Assembly (NCBI GenBank): GCA_038231135.1
Contig: JBBRLX010000033.1
Coordinates: 1-47,848, forward strand
Direction: 5' to 3'
DNA from: Candidatus Eiseniibacteriota bacterium
Lineage (GTDB): Bacteria > Eisenbacteria > RBG-16-71-46
DNA length: 47,848 nucleotides
Shown here piece by piece: positions 10,746 through 16,580 of this stretch; position 1 is the stretch's first letter, and each line of letters starts with the position of its first letter. A model generated the notes under the pieces. The model was not told the origin of the DNA. It saw only the letters and a list, made by a program, of their open reading frames with translations, and did not search any database. A program made the translations under genes and the position numbers.

Positions 10746-13454
10746 TTAGGCGGGCTCGGCCTGGGAATCGTACGTGGGCAGCTTCCGATCCACGGACACC
10801 ACGCGATAGTGCTTGCGCGCGGCGCCCTCGCCGAACTCGACGTCGTCGCCGATGCGATGGCCGAGCAGCGCGCGCCCCACGGGCGTCTGGAACGAGATCA
10901 CGTTATCGCCCAGATGCTGTTCGTCCTCGCCGAGGATCCAGTACGACGTGCGCTCGTTGCCGGCCTGCAGGCCGACTTCGGTGCCGACGCCCACCGTGCC
11001 TTCGCGATACTCGAGGTCGTCCACGAACTTCGCACGCGCCAGCCGCAACTGCATGGTGGCCGCGAGCTGGCTGGCATTCGCCTGTTTGAGCTTGGCGGCG
11101 TGGTATTCGGCGTTCTCCTTGAGATCGCCGAGCTCGCGGGCCTTCTGGATCGCCGCGGGAATCGTGGTGCGCAGCTCGCGCTCCATGCGCTCGAGCTCGA
11201 CACGCATGCGCTCGTAGGTGGCGCGTGTCATCACCGACAGCTCGGCGTCCTCGGCCACCTGGCCGACGCCGTCGAACATGCGCTCGGTCCGCGCCGCGCG
11301 CGCGGCGCGCACGGTCGCCGCCTCGTCGGCGAGGCCCAGCCGGTCGGTGGCCTCGAGTGCCGGGAACATGTAGCGGTCGCTGGAGCGCCAGCCGCGGAGC
11401 AGGATGCGAACCTTGAGCCGGAACTCCTCGGGGCACGGCCGGCCGATCAGCGCCGCGTCGAACGCGCCGCCCTCCTCGATCCAGCGCAGCACCTTGTCGG
11501 CCGTCGACGGCTTCGGGCGCTCTTCGATCAGCGCCAGCGCCGAGCAGAACAGCCGCCACGGCTCGGGGCCCTCGTCGAGCCGCGGCAACTCCTCGTCGAT
11601 CAGGCGCAGCGCGGCGCCGGGATAGCGTGTCGCGTGGGCGAGCAGCGTGCGGCGCATCTCCGAGCGGCCGCGGTCGTCGAGGTGCTCGCGCAACTGCTCG
11701 GCTTCGGTGCGGACCGAGGCGAAGCGCGAGTCGAGCGCCGACAGGATGGCGTCCGCGTCCTCGCCCGCTTCGTGCGACGCCTGCAGCAACAGCAACTGCT
11801 CGTCCTCGCCCGACAGGTCCGAGATCGCGAGACCCTGGTCCCACAGCACCTTGAGCACCCGGGTCCATTCCGCCATGCGCGCGGGGAACCAGCGCGCGAA
11901 GAACAATCCGGCGCGGCCCCGGTCCACGCGGTCGCCGTCGTCATCGAGCACCGCGCGCACCACGTACTTGCCGAACCGCTGCGCGAGCGCCGCGTCCGCG
12001 TGCGGATGCTGCGACAGGAACTTCCGCAGCGTGGCCAGGTTCTGCTTCACGGTCTTGCGCGGCGCGAGCGACGGCAGCGGGCCGGCGTCGGAACCGGCGA
12101 CCGACCCTTCGGGCGTGAGCCGGTAGGTCTGCTCGAACGCGCGCGAGGAATCGATGCGCGGGTCCTTGTCGGCGGCCGCGCGGACCTTGCGCCAGAACAC
12201 GTTCCAGTCCTTGGCGGGGACGATCGCCGAGCCCACCAGGAACACCTTGAATCGCTGCGCGTCGCCCGAGCCGCCAAGCGATCCAAGCGCGCGGACCATG
12301 ATGTCGACCGGCGAGTGCGTGCGCAGCCGCGCGAGCTCCTCGGGATTCAAGACCGCGAGCAGCCGCAGGTCGTCGTCGGGCAGTCCGGTCAGCGATCTCC
12401 GCGCCGCCGCGATCGGCATCTTGTGGGCCTTCGAGCGGGCGAAGTCGATCACGACCGTCTCGGCGTCGTTCGTGATCACACGGCCCGCACCAAACGAGGT
12501 GTGGTTCACGGCACTGCCCGGGGGCAGCGCGACGATCGCGTCGAACCGCTCGAGCGCCTCCAGCAGCGGCTGCGCGGAGTCGAGCACGCCCGACCGCTCG
12601 AACACCGGATCGGGCTGTGGCAGGTCGCGGCCGGGGCCCTGCCGCAGGCTGTCGGCGAGCATTGGGCGGAACCGGTCGGCCGACTCGGGCCCGTGCTTCT
12701 CGAGCGTCTTCACCGCCACCTTGCGCACCGCGTCGAGCACTTCGCCCGCCTGACTCGTGGCCGCGAGCGGCGGGAACGCGATCCCGAGCAGCTGCCACAG
12801 CTCCTTGTCGGCGCCCTGCTCGATCAGCAGCGGCAGCGTGCCGATGAGGCGGATCAGGCCTTCGTGCTCGTCGTGCTCGACGAATTCGAGCGCCGCCTCC
12901 TCGAGCCCGGGATAGCGCCGCTCCTGGGCGAAGCGCGGCATCAGCTCCGACAGCATCGCGCGCCGTTCGGCGCCGCGTCCCGCCTCACCCAGCCGGATCG
13001 CGAGCGTGAGGCCGACGTCGAGATCGTCGGGGATGACGAGCCAGGCGCGCTGCAGCGCGTCGATCCGCTCGGGATCGCGCTTGAGCGCCTCGTGGGCGGC
13101 CACCAGCAGATGCGCGCCGGCGCCGGACTCCTCGACCAGCAGTGCGCGGTCGGCTACGACCGCCAGCGCCTCCCACTGCTTCGCGGTGGCGAGCTTGTCG
13201 CCGAGTGCCAGCAGCGTCTGGTGGGCGCGTTCGGTTTCGCCGTGCAACCGGCACACCTGCGACAGCAGGAACTCGACGCCGGAGGATGCGCCACCCTGCC
13301 GCATGCGCGCCGCGCACTCGTCGCGCACCTGGGTTAGCTGCCGTTCATCCGCCGCCTGCTGCGCCAAAGCGTCGAGGCGCACGAATGCCTCGGGCGTGAG
13401 CGTGGCGGCTTCTTCACCGCGGAGGATGGACGAAAGGGTGTCTCGAATGGCCAT
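10746..13454 (-). CDS. greA: Long GreA/GreB-family transcript cleavage factor (about 900 aa, C-terminal GreA domain)
   Basis: C-terminal IQKARELGDLKENAEYHAAK and ISFQTPVGRALLG; ~740-aa N-terminal extension. Confidence 0.8.
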   Translation of the reverse strand: MAIRDTLSSILRGEEAATLTPEAFVRLDALAQQAADERQLTQVRDECAARMRQGGASSGVEFLLSQVCRLHGETERAHQTLLALGDKLATAKQWEALAVVADRALLVEESGAGAHLLVAAHEALKRDPERIDALQRAWLVIPDDLDVGLTLAIRLGEAGRGAERRAMLSELMPRFAQERRYPGLEEAALEFVEHDEHEGLIRLIGTLPLLIEQGADKELWQLLGIAFPPLAATSQAGEVLDAVRKVAVKTLEKHGPESADRFRPMLADSLRQGPGRDLPQPDPVFERSGVLDSAQPLLEALERFDAIVALPPGSAVNHTSFGAGRVITNDAETVVIDFARSKAHKMPIAAARRSLTGLPDDDLRLLAVLNPEELARLRTHSPVDIMVRALGSLGGSGDAQRFKVFLVGSAIVPAKDWNVFWRKVRAAADKDPRIDSSRAFEQTYRLTPEGSVAGSDAGPLPSLAPRKTVKQNLATLRKFLSQHPHADAALAQRFGKYVVRAVLDDDGDRVDRGRAGLFFARWFPARMAEWTRVLKVLWDQGLAISDLSGEDEQLLLLQASHEAGEDADAILSALDSRFASVRTEAEQLREHLDDRGRSEMRRTLLAHATRYPGAALRLIDEELPRLDEGPEPWRLFCSALALIEERPKPSTADKVLRWIEEGGAFDAALIGRPCPEEFRLKVRILLRGWRSSDRYMFPALEATDRLGLADEAATVRAARAARTERMFDGVGQVAEDAELSVMTRATYERMRVELERMERELRTTIPAAIQKARELGDLKENAEYHAAKLKQANASQLAATMQLRLARAKFVDDLEYREGTVGVGTEVGLQAGNERTSYWILGEDEQHLGDNVISFQTPVGRALLGHRIGDDVEFGEGAARKHYRVVSVDRKLPTYDSQAEPA

Positions 13455-13578
13455 TCGGTCGAAGTGATTCCTGATCTGGATAGGGTCGAACATAATGGCG
13501 CACGGAATCCCGTAAGCGCAAGCGGCCCCGCCCGGCCGGTCCTTGTGCCGTTCGATCGCCCGCCCCTACACTCGCCCG

Positions 13579-14124
13579 ATGAAGATCTACACGCGCACCG
13601 GGGACGACGGCACGACCGGCCTGCTCGGCCCCGGCCGGGTGCCGAAACACGCCCCGCGCGTGGAAGCCTACGGCACCGTGGACGAGCTGAACGCGGTGCT
13701 GGGGACCGTCCGGGCGCTGGACCCGGGCGGGGCATTCACCCAGGAACTGGCCACGTTCCAGACCGCCCTGTTCTCGATCGGAGCCGTGCTGGCGACGACG
13801 GCCCCCCAGCCGCGACTGCCGCGGGCGACCCCGGAGGACGTGGCGCAGCTCGAGTCGTGGATCGACCGGTTCGAGGGTGAACTGCCCGTGCTACGGAACT
13901 TCATCCAGCCCGCCGGCACGCCGCTGGCCGCCCAGTTCCACCTCGCGCGCACCGTGTGCCGCCGGGCCGAGCGCCGTGTGGTGGCGCTCGCGCAGCTCGA
14001 GCCCGTCGACGCGGAGGTGGTGAAGTACCTGAATCGGCTCGCGGATCTGCTGTTCGTGATGGCGCGGGTGGCGAACCGGCGCGCGGGCGTGGACGACGTC
14101 GAGTGGCGTCCGAGCTCGACCTGA
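13579..14124 (+). CDS. ATP:cob(I)alamin adenosyltransferase (PduO type)
   Basis: KIYTRTGDDGTT, YGTVDELN, ARTVCRRAER, YLNRLADLLF motifs. Confidence 0.93.
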   Translation: MKIYTRTGDDGTTGLLGPGRVPKHAPRVEAYGTVDELNAVLGTVRALDPGGAFTQELATFQTALFSIGAVLATTAPQPRLPRATPEDVAQLESWIDRFEGELPVLRNFIQPAGTPLAAQFHLARTVCRRAERRVVALAQLEPVDAEVVKYLNRLADLLFVMARVANRRAGVDDVEWRPSST

Positions 14125-14160
14125 TCGCGCGGCGCGGGTGGACGGTCCGGTCCAGGGGTC

Positions 14161-14190
14161 TGGACAAATGGCGGCGGCCGCCGCCATAAT
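14161..14190 (+). promoter_or_regulatory. Putative sigma70 promoter upstream of the rho leader
   Basis: TGGACA-N18-CATAAT. Confidence 0.6.
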
Positions 14191-14196
14191 GCGTAC

Positions 14197-14816
14197 GCAC
14201 ACCTGTTGGAGGAGACCCACTGCCGCGCATGCCGGATGGCATCGCAGCTGATCGCCGGGCTCCTCGTGAGTGGTTCCCCGCTCTAGCCGTAGCCGTCGCG
14301 CCCGCCCTTGTCACACCCCACCGGGCTCCGACGTGCGGGTGAAGCAGAAAACCGTCTCCGAGGGTTCGGGTGAGTTCGGCAACTCGTCGGTGGCAGCGAC
14401 GACGCCATCTCCGCATCGTAAGAGTTCGCCGGATCCATGGCGGATGCGAGGCGCGCGGCAGGCAGAAGGATCCGCTGGCGGTCCGCTGTTCCAGAAGCGT
14501 GACCGATGTGGTGAACAACAGCAGCGAGGCGGCGCCGGCCGGTAGGTTCGAGATTCGTGCCGGCGACACCTGGAGCGCCCCGTAACGCCAGCTGGGGTTG
14601 CGTCCGGCGCCCACCGGTCCTTGCAGCATGCGTCCATTCGTCGCCTTCCGGTTCCAGGCGGCAAGCGGGTGCACCGACCAACGTTCCACGCTCCCCTCGA
14701 GCGTATGAACGAGAAACACAACACGCTCCGTGCGCCATACGAGCGCGCGCCGCGCCGCGACTGCGGCCGGAAGCGCGCACCCGCCCGGAGCGGAAACCCC
14801 GGAGTCCACCATCAAC
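14197..14816 (+). ncRNA. Candidate large structured RNA / 5' leader of rho-like gene
   Basis: About 620 nt with no credible ORF, and a chain of helices with G-U wobbles on the + strand (see findings). Confidence 0.5.
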
Positions 14817-16007
14817 ATGAGACCTCGCCGCCGCCGACCGCGCGGCCCGCGCCCCCCGCAATCGGCGGGCGGCACACCCGAACCAGGAGCCTCGGTGCAG
14901 CCATCGCAGCAGCAGCAGGGACGCCGCCGACGACGACGACCGCGGGGCGTGAACCGCCCCATCAACAACGACGCGCCGCAGCCCTATTCCGACAACCGCA
15001 CCGGCGCGGCACCGCAGCCGCCGCGATCGCAGAACGGCCCGCCCGCGCAGCAGCGCCGCCGCCGCCCAACCCGCGGACGCCCGGCCAATGACCGGCGCCG
15101 CGGCCTCGAAATCCTTAAGGACATGCAGCAGATCGGCGCGGCGCTCGATCCCACCGAACGGCTGATCCTCGAGTTGCCGCCGGGCGAGGGCGACCCGCCC
15201 TACGGCGACCGCACCACCGGCCGGGCGATCGACATGATCGCGCCGATCGGACGCGGCCAGCGCTGCCTGATCGTGTCGCCGCCCAAGGCGGGCAAGACGC
15301 GGATTCTGCAGTGCATCGCGGCGTCGATCGCGCACAACCATCCCGAAGTCGGCATCTACGCGCTGCTGGTGGACGAACGGCCCGAGGAAGTCACCGACTT
15401 CAAGCGCAACACCCCGGCCGAGGTGATCGCGGCCTCGAGCGACATGACGATTGCGGAGCACATCGAGACCTCGGAGTACGCGATGGAAGTCGTGGCGACG
15501 CAGGTGCTCGAGGGCAAGGACGTGGTGCTGCTGCTCGACTCGATCACGCGCCTTGCCCGGGCCTACAACGCGAACTCCGACGGCGGCGGCCGCACGATGT
15601 CCGGCGGCCTCGACTCGAACGCGATGCAGTCGCCGCGCATGATCTTCGGCGCCGCGCGCAAGATCGAAGGCGGCGGCTCGCTGACGATCGTCGGCACCGC
15701 GCTCGTCGACACCGGCTCGCGGATGGACCAGGTGATCTTCGAGGAGTTCAAGGGCACCGGAAACATGGAGCTGGTGCTGTCGCGCGAGCTCGCGGAGCGC
15801 CGGATCTATCCCGCGATCGACATCCCGAAGAGCGGGACGCGCAAGGAGGAGAAGCTGTATCCGCCCGAGATCGTGAACCGCATGCACCTGCTGCGCCGCG
15901 GCCTCGCGGGACTCCAGCCCCAGGACGCGATGACGAAGCTGCTCGAGCTCCTGAACAAGCGCAAGACCAACGAGGAGATCTTCCAGCTGCTGAAGGTGAA
16001 CGAGTAG
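14817..16007 (+). CDS. rho: Transcription termination factor Rho homologue lacking the canonical RNA-binding domain
   Basis: [53 protein letters not shown] and SGTRKEE are all present. The N-terminus is an Arg/Pro/Gln-rich tail. Start chosen at ATG 14817 after GGAG at 14801. Confidence 0.9.
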
Positions 16008-16016
16008 CGGGCGGAA

Positions 16017-16580
16017 CTACGCGCTGACCCGCTCCACGAATTCGCCGGTGCGGGTGTCGATCTTCACGCGGTTTCCGACTTCGATGTAGGGCGGCACCTT
16101 GATTTCGTGGCCGGTCTCGAGGATCGCGGGCTTGTTCGTGTTCTGCACCGCGGCGCCCTTGATATTGGGCGTCGTGTCCTTCACCTCGAGCTCCACGAAC
16201 ATCGGCACTTCGACGCCCACCACCCGGCCGTCGAAGTAGTCGGCCTCCATCATCATGCCCTCGGTGAGGTAGTTCACGGCGTCGCCCAGCACGTCCGATC
16301 CCAGCTCGACCATCTCGTACGACTCGGTGTTCATGAAGTGGAACTGGTCGCCGGCGCGGTAGCTGTACTGGAGCGAGTGCTGCTCCATGTTCGCCTTCTC
16401 GACCTTGTCCTCGGACGAGTACCGATGCTCGGAGTTGGCGCCGTTCTCGATGTTCACGAGCTTCACCTGGACGAAGCCGCGCAGGTTGCCGGGGGTGCGA
16501 TGGATCGCGGTGGACACGCGATGCGGCTTGCCGTTGTGCATGATGATCATGCCGACTTTGACCTGGGTGGCAGCAATCAT
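16017..16580 (-). CDS. efp: Elongation factor P (PGNLR loop variant)
   Basis: Three-domain EF-P motifs FHFMNTESYE, KPAILETG, VPPYIEVG, IDTRTGEFVER; SD GAGGAG. Confidence 0.95.
   Translation of the reverse strand: MIAATQVKVGMIIMHNGKPHRVSTAIHRTPGNLRGFVQVKLVNIENGANSEHRYSSEDKVEKANMEQHSLQYSYRAGDQFHFMNTESYEMVELGSDVLGDAVNYLTEGMMMEADYFDGRVVGVEVPMFVELEVKDTTPNIKGAAVQNTNKPAILETGHEIKVPPYIEVGNRVKIDTRTGEFVERVSA

Follow-up and report, generated by a model that had tools for sequence, protein, structure and literature searches.

Bacterial Rho proteins have been classified by Moreira et al. 2024 (Moreira, Chyou, Wade and Brown; PMC11347177), for whom a functional Rho combines RNA-binding and ATPase domains, a definition reused in PMC13613805; PMC7819879 was also drawn on. 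The supplement of that survey (Table S3) lists 28 "Rho-like ATPase domain" sequences that are called "not functional" yet carry the essential residues, a label given by definition and without experiment, and it also describes a D/G/R-rich initial domain in Myxococcales. Second Rho copies known as Group B, Type 2d or Type 4 (D'Heygere 2013, as cited in PMC11347177; NF041509, paralog_Rho2) stand beside a canonical Rho and lack Rho_N but keep the OB fold. In the Type 2 Rhos of Mycobacterium tuberculosis (NID; PMC13650167) and Bacteroides, a basic disordered region on the N-terminal face has been added to an intact OB fold. The M. tuberculosis insertion is needed for >97% of selected Rut sites and has been proposed to act as a six-tail corona (PMC13650167).

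The gene described here, rho2, lies in a stretch of 47,848 nucleotides (the window) and encodes a Rho paralogue in which a basic, predicted disordered region of this kind, also in a G+C-rich organism, stands alone, without an OB fold (Table 1). Like the "Rho-like ATPase domain" group, it matches the Rho ATPase domain only, with no Rho_N or RNA-binding match; the marine gammaproteobacterial members of that list have ~33 residues before the ATPase domain, whereas rho2 has a 95-residue tail with ~25 arginines. Like Group B, it is a second copy without Rho_N that falls outside the canonical clade, and it shares with Group B the xDP-ERL connector motif, the absence of W381 and the same side of the tree.

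Table 1. Coordinates of rho2, its parts and its neighbours in the window
Feature	Position	Strand	Basis
pduO, cob(I)alamin adenosyltransferase, upstream neighbour	13579..14124	+	PF01923
Sigma70-type promoter-like site TGGACA-N18-CATAAT, just past pduO stop	14161..14190	+	10/12 consensus matches
Inferred 626-nt 5' leader of rho2	14191..14816	+	promoter-like site to ATG
rho2, OB-less Rho paralogue, 396 aa	14817..16007	+	ORF translation, Pfam, NCBIfam, AlphaFold2 model
Arg-rich tail, residues 1-95, predicted disordered	14817..15101	+	26 Arg, 0 Lys, net +22; AlphaFold2
Family-specific motif N-R-P-x-x-N-x-A-P-Q-P-Y in tail, residues 46-57	14952..14987	+	family alignment
Predicted amphipathic helix into connector, residues 96-106	15102..15134	+	AlphaFold2 helix; alignment position
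Family-specific connector-loop insert PPGEGDPPY	15177..15203	+	8-residue insert vs other OB-less families
Walker A PPKAGKT	15279..15299	+	motif in translation, alignment
DERPEE	15372..15389	+	motif in translation, alignment
Q-loop GGRTMSGG, secondary RNA site	15585..15608	+	aligned to E. coli 281-287
R-loop DTGSRMD, secondary RNA site	15708..15728	+	aligned to E. coli 322-328
Arginine finger SGTRKEE (E. coli R366)	15831..15851	+	alignment
His357 in place of E. coli W381	15885..15887	+	alignment
Elongation factor P, convergent downstream neighbour	16017..16580	-	Pfam

A sequence-only reading of the locus had claimed an intact Rho motor without OB-fold motifs in the protein or upstream of it, and both parts hold: every motor motif that it quoted is present in the 396-residue frame, and neither Rho_N nor an OB fold occurs in any frame. 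When the frame was taken from an upstream GTG (14730), Pfam matches at E<=1 were confined to ATP-synt_ab and weak P-loop or other hits, so that the HMM scan proposed in that reading returned neither PF07497 (Rho_RNA_bind) nor PF07498 (Rho_N) at this threshold. A sensitive OB profile built here, which picks up the degenerate OB folds of other Rhos at 24-44 bits, gave zero signal in the rho2 N-terminus, and in the ESM Atlas residues 1-125 matched Rho_RNA_bind clusters at 0.77-0.82, which is chance level. An OB fold concealed by an upstream start was ruled out, as the 432-codon open frame holds none, and so was a split gene with the OB fold elsewhere, as a six-frame search of the genome placed its sole PF07497 and PF07498 matches in the canonical rho. 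Among NCBIfam models, rho2 passes NF006886 (375.4 against a cut-off of 315) and falls below TIGR00767 (370.7 against 509.45) and NF041509 (331.5 against 628). It lacks both the OB domain that the definition of a functional Rho (Types 1-4) by Moreira et al. 2024 requires and the Rho_N helical bundle that marks Type 1.

Compared with canonical Rho (E. coli; structures 8Q3N, 5JJI and 3ICE), rho2 has the same RecA-type motor with Walker A and B, Q- and R-loops and arginine finger at 48-50% identity, but it has no primary RNA-binding site and no Rho_N, and a His replaces W381. The AlphaFold2 model, built on a 34-row alignment, places the Rho motor downstream of the helix at residues 96-106 and superposes on 8Q3N over 289 residues (Z 38.3, rmsd 1.9). 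Judged by alignment, the catalytic and pore residues of the Rho ATPase domain are all kept, including DERPEE, which holds the catalytic Glu and the Arg valve. Across 49 OB-less sequences, G183, K184, T185, D210, E211, R212, D265, R269, T323-S325, E334, K336, R353 and R366 (E. coli numbers) are invariant, Q-loop position 283 is always Arg and R-loop position 326 always Arg or Lys. These frames were selected via DERPEE, a filter that dropped none of the 30 and 16 Eisenbacteria loci fetched; residues were mapped onto E. coli Rho from its named record, with roles drawn in part from PMC5449661 and PMC11829017. W381, on the other hand, is present in 0/49 OB-less and 0/15 degenerate-OB sequences but in 75/84 canonical ones. 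The R353-W381 contact has been suggested to keep the Rho ring open, and closure requires that it be broken (PMC11829017). Because Group B Rhos whose OB fold is intact lack W381 as well, the loss of this residue is not a compensation specific to OB loss; rather, it would have come first and may have permitted the OB deletion.

The gene is neither an assembly product nor confined to one genome. A sediment contig from run X1, which may be the source sample, crosses the junction between tail and motor (13605-15297) with 0 differences, and a contig from run X2 of the same study covers 13500-15661, differing at 6 letters and by 2 gaps. With the junction bridged and relatives likewise devoid of an OB domain, neither of the outcomes that had been set beforehand as counting against the sequence-only reading was encountered. 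A query of 83 residues across the junction gave matches at E<1e-30 in 80/89 family genomes (counted by hand) and in 41 of the 44 good ones; the canonical OB domain was found in 79/89 and 43/44, respectively. Four further families of the phylum gave intermediate matches extending over the helix, in 9/10 (a count that includes the unpublished G038), 12/13, 5/6 and 8/8 genomes, against 0/80 genomes from 13 other families. From the four families, 16 of 34 loci were fetched; all 16 lack the OB fold by profile, and the 10 that were scanned all lack PF07497. Both the domain loss and the Arg tail are conserved among orthologues. PF00006 is the only domain in the best 120 database homologues of rho2, and one database homologue (P0015) is named Candidatus Eisenbacteria, a name that we adopt for the phylum. 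Further afield, the OB-less form was found in 1/61 Elusimicrobia genomes, a representative search with the junction profile gave 576 matches, mostly fragments, with 12 at E<=1e-10, and a phage collection gave 15 matches at 44-51% identity. A protein of 4336 aa (P0121) matches the junction profile in 16 stretches, probably as a repeat artefact.

Comparison of the rho2 core with 24 orthologues gave dN of 0.05-0.15 and dS of 0.34-0.66 (ratio 0.09-0.36), and by this measure rho2 is under purifying selection. A misassembly, a frameshift or a decaying pseudogene is hardly credible against such values: no support for it was found beyond an additional copy, broken by a TGA inside the frame, in one genome (G032:C5:4617-5609, minus strand), which has an intact copy alongside, and it is refuted by the bridging contigs in two runs, the family distribution and a dN far below dS, with the start, ribosome site and promoter-like site also conserved. 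On the comparative evidence, rho2 is a real, conserved and selected gene.

The phylogeny was inferred from the ATPase part only (LG+G4, unrooted) with 72 hand-picked rows out of ~190 loci, 5 of the 30 family loci among them. All 20 OB-less rows form one clade (99/98), made up of 17 Eisenbacteria rows (100/98) and a sister group (100/99) that comprises the Elusimicrobia protein, a bacterial protein (L083) and a plasmid protein of Spartinivicinus ruber. Canonical Rhos, including the canonical copy of this genome on contig C15, form a separate clade (100/99) with the Group B forms in between, and a quick tree of 108 rows gave the same picture. The S. ruber protein (WP_163836858.1; L193), the one of the 28 members of the published list that was fetched by name, is OB-less with an in-frame stop just upstream, and its place in the OB-less clade (99/98) points to common descent with rho2. 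Its gene (L193:3959-4918, NZ_CP048880.1) lies on a 102-kb plasmid, oriented opposite to the holin and terminase genes that it adjoins, as a gene carried as phage cargo might be. One Rho in an Eisenbacteria bin (L052, G053:C21) groups with E. coli Rho, by contamination or transfer.

Arg runs together with a decayed OB fold occur in second Rhos of Acidobacteriota (L055, L057) and in 11 from the phylum of a Myxococcales genome (L144-L154), and five such Rhos scanned on PF07497 scored 21-29 bits. The nearest neighbours of the OB-less clade, however, are Group B forms of the PVC/Rhodothermota type (95/85) and not these Arg-run intermediates. The latter suggest a path to OB loss but are not the sister group. 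Such a history would start with a disordered head bearing Arg runs on a Group B Rho, whose OB fold decayed and was then lost. In L144-L154 the decayed OB fold lies around the Pfam cut-off, at 21-28 bits in the three that were scanned. The published "ATPase-only" group is probably heterogeneous in part, and some of its entries may be profile misses. The novelty implied by the sequence-only reading was overstated in that such a class already stands in the supplement of Moreira et al. 2024 with an OB-less member of the same clade. As far as literature searches reach, the long-tailed Eisenbacteria subfamily, its tail and the evidence for its function are new: the searches, which covered few subscription journals, turned up neither experiments on an OB-less Rho nor any publication on Rho in Eisenbacteria, and the main text of PMC11347177 holds no mention of Eisenbacteria.

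In line with the four Arg clusters first noticed from the letters, the tail holds four runs of at least three arginines, and AlphaFold2 gives a pLDDT mostly below 50 for residues 1-93. Across 25 family tails the length varies from 89 to 136 residues, yet the composition stays at 22-28 Arg and 0-1 Lys, with a net charge of +19 to +23 in 22/25. Two of the Arg runs hold their position within the family alignment, and a motif of N-x-x-P-x-P-Y type recurs in 22/25 tails. A derivation of the longer version of this motif in rho2, NRPxxNxAPQPY, from the OB loop RSPDYNYLPGP was considered and rejected, as 0/25 tails reached p<0.05 in a profile test (median p 0.43). In the four other families the head is longer, with many Arg, Gly and Asp/Glu residues, and in these families and the sister clade alike it is Arg-rich and hydrophobe-poor. 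Arg-rich motifs of the lambda N type are short conserved peptides that fold on a cognate RNA hairpin. Because it is the number of arginines that is conserved whereas tail sequences differ between families, a hairpin reader of this type is less likely than capture by charge. At the end of the tail, GLEILKD, which had been read as a possible deletion scar, scores +6.0 bits on an OB beta-1 profile (8/10,000 background 7-mers reach a score of 5) and -4.7 on a Group B connector profile, and it sits where a deletion would fuse tail and connector; on the other hand, it is predicted as a helix and aligns at the connector position, and in the four other families the equivalent segment lies at -1 to -16 on beta-1 and does poorly on the connector too.

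The start of rho2 is conserved as MR[PSQ]RRR in 25/30 family loci, the remaining five being cut by contig ends (four) or provided with a different start (one), and AGGA or GGAG lies within 18 nt upstream of the start in 22/24 family loci compared. The promoter-like site was found once, against 0.2 in shuffles, its pattern has two occurrences in the whole genome, and the same site is present in 20/21 orthologous intergenic regions (those of the 25 loci with pduO and the start both within the fetched flank), the 21st having a 15-nt spacer. From this site to the ATG the 20 relatives have 213-626 nt. The leader is otherwise poorly conserved and has no match in Rfam, but it shows a stretch with more C than G ~50-110 nt past the -10 box (at offset 80, C exceeds G by 4.3 per 30 nt on average), with a surplus in 18/21 leaders and matched by 3/2000 shuffles, with the caveat that these kin are not independent. 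The C bias of the rho2 leader (C220/G206) is weaker than that of the canonical rho leader (C119/G83), and attenuation of rho2 by Rho is a guess. A conserved leader fold was rejected (folding z +1.7 to -2.8, with nothing shared among leaders), as was a leader peptide, since small frames after a ribosome-site-like word occur in 7/21 leaders with unrelated sequences. A purine-rich GAGGAG-like word at 14205-14220 (plus strand), 15-25 nt past the -10 box, recurs in most leaders, with no reading frame behind it that is conserved across them. One RNA run (X20) gave only divergent pieces on rho2, and the contigs attest to presence only; small word shares in a sequencing run are not taken as a sign of habitat.

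The surroundings of rho2 are also partly conserved, the adenosyltransferase gene lying upstream in 23/30 family loci (1.5-kb flanks) and efp within the flank in 15/30. Further upstream in the window, a gene at 10746-13493 (minus strand) encodes a 915-residue protein whose GreA/GreB domains are confined to the last 150 residues, with ~750 residues that have no Pfam match above the cut-off. This giant Gre factor lies within 1.5 kb upstream of rho2 in 16/30 family loci and clusters with rho2 and efp.

A canonical rho, the existence of which the sequence-only reading had left to be looked for, is present on contig C15 (G000), where it holds the single PF07497 and the single PF07498 match of the genome and is 55% identical to rho2 in the motor; together with the separate clades in the tree, this bears out the description of rho2 as a paralogue. 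The two genes are unlinked and have separate promoter-like sites. A TTGACA box followed by an inferred C-rich leader of 314 nt (C119, G83), such as autoregulation would predict, precedes the canonical gene (G000:C15, upstream of 53577, minus strand). A lineage with rho2 as its sole Rho was rejected, as 28/29 short-form carriers in the phylum of G207 also have an OB domain. Where family genomes show rho2 without an OB match, the assemblies are fragmented MAGs, and no good assembly checked has rho2 as its only Rho except G004, in which a canonical fragment is present without an OB match. Both nusG and rplK are missing from the G000 assembly; nusG is present in 47/89 family genomes, often near contig ends. 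Loss of NusG was rejected, and the gap is read as one unassembled stretch because rplK is missing too and nusG is present in the family.

Purifying selection, retention across the family and the promoter-like site argue for some function of rho2. Our preferred reading, to which we assign a probability of about 0.5, is that rho2 may be an auxiliary RNA translocase or terminator that forms a ring of its own and is loaded by its six Arg-rich tails. The homo-ring, presumably a hexamer, would catch RNA by charge through the tails, as proposed for the M. tuberculosis insertion, and hand it to the pore loops, where binding would close the ring, a step that the absence of the R353-W381 latch may ease. 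ATPase and translocase activity as well as RNA binding by the tail are expected on this reading, and NusG, found in the family, could assist as it does with E. coli primary-site mutants. The task of such a ring would be to terminate structured, G+C-rich or rut-poor transcripts on which canonical Rho loads poorly. Beside recruitment by RNA structure, a partner, condensates or mixed hexamers, as put forward in the sequence-only reading, RNA capture by the tail has the best precedent, by analogy with M. tuberculosis, where the tail acts together with an intact OB fold, unlike in rho2. In E. coli, primary-site mutants that are assisted by NusG retain termination at most sites (PMC4150792), and U12 RNA in the pore is sufficient for ring closure (PMC5449661), although the E. 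coli data concern point mutants whereas rho2 is a deletion of the whole domain. The N-terminal domains of Rho also contact RNA polymerase (PMC11018626, PMC11718236), so that termination by rho2 could be impaired, and we count against a self-sufficient terminator that rho2 accompanies canonical Rho wherever assemblies allow a check. Rho2 is nevertheless likely to have remained able to capture RNA and travel along it, and the published "not functional" listing would then be contradicted.

Other roles have to be weighed against this one. Rho2 could mainly be a subunit of mixed hexamers, in which canonical Rho gives the OB folds and the rho2 tails tune specificity or ring dynamics, as hetero-hexamers have been proposed for Group A/B pairs (PMC11347177); the near-constant co-occurrence of the two proteins and the 55% identity of their motors fit this, but co-occurrence is expected anyway where canonical rho is near-universal, and the deep split of the two lineages in the tree, the family-specific connector insert, the changed 381-389 surface and the unlinked genes with their separate promoter-like sites speak against it, so that we consider it unlikely. 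Much the same low probability attaches to an active translocase that does not terminate and would rather clear R-loops or remodel structured RNA or RNPs, possibly from tail condensates. The motor and tail evidence would serve such an activity equally well, the lost domains are among those that contact RNA polymerase, and disordered regions of Rho drive phase separation in other bacteria (PMC11347177); however, neither a partner gene nor the context of the family loci indicates another substrate, and catch-up termination uses the C-terminal face (PMC12360218), which rho2 retains. A decoy that poisons or sequesters canonical Rho, or titrates RNA or NusG, and so damps termination under stress is more improbable still, since it would not need the catalytic and pore residues that are invariant in 49/49 sequences, even though both proteins and oligomerisation inhibit Rho under stress (PMC11829017, PMC11718236, PMC11018626) and a member of the sister clade lies on a phage-like plasmid by holin and terminase genes, where antitermination would pay.

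The auxiliary translocase or terminator can also be cast in a bolder form, which we regard as possible but doubtful: the OB-less Rhos might represent an old, multi-phylum second termination system, a rut-independent ring unlatched by the loss of W381 and surrounded by a corona of ~150 arginines, which would terminate or clear structured, G+C-rich transcripts alone, escape inhibitors that bind the N-terminal domain and be tuned through a long leader with its C>G stretch. ATPase-only Rhos have been set aside by surveys. Across a bacterial family, however, the present subfamily is retained with the same fidelity as canonical rho. As a natural deletion, rho2 offers a way to test if Rho can load and terminate at all when it has no primary RNA-binding site, and if a basic disordered stretch can by itself choose substrates; among cultured organisms, Spartinivicinus ruber has a protein of this clade with a short tail.
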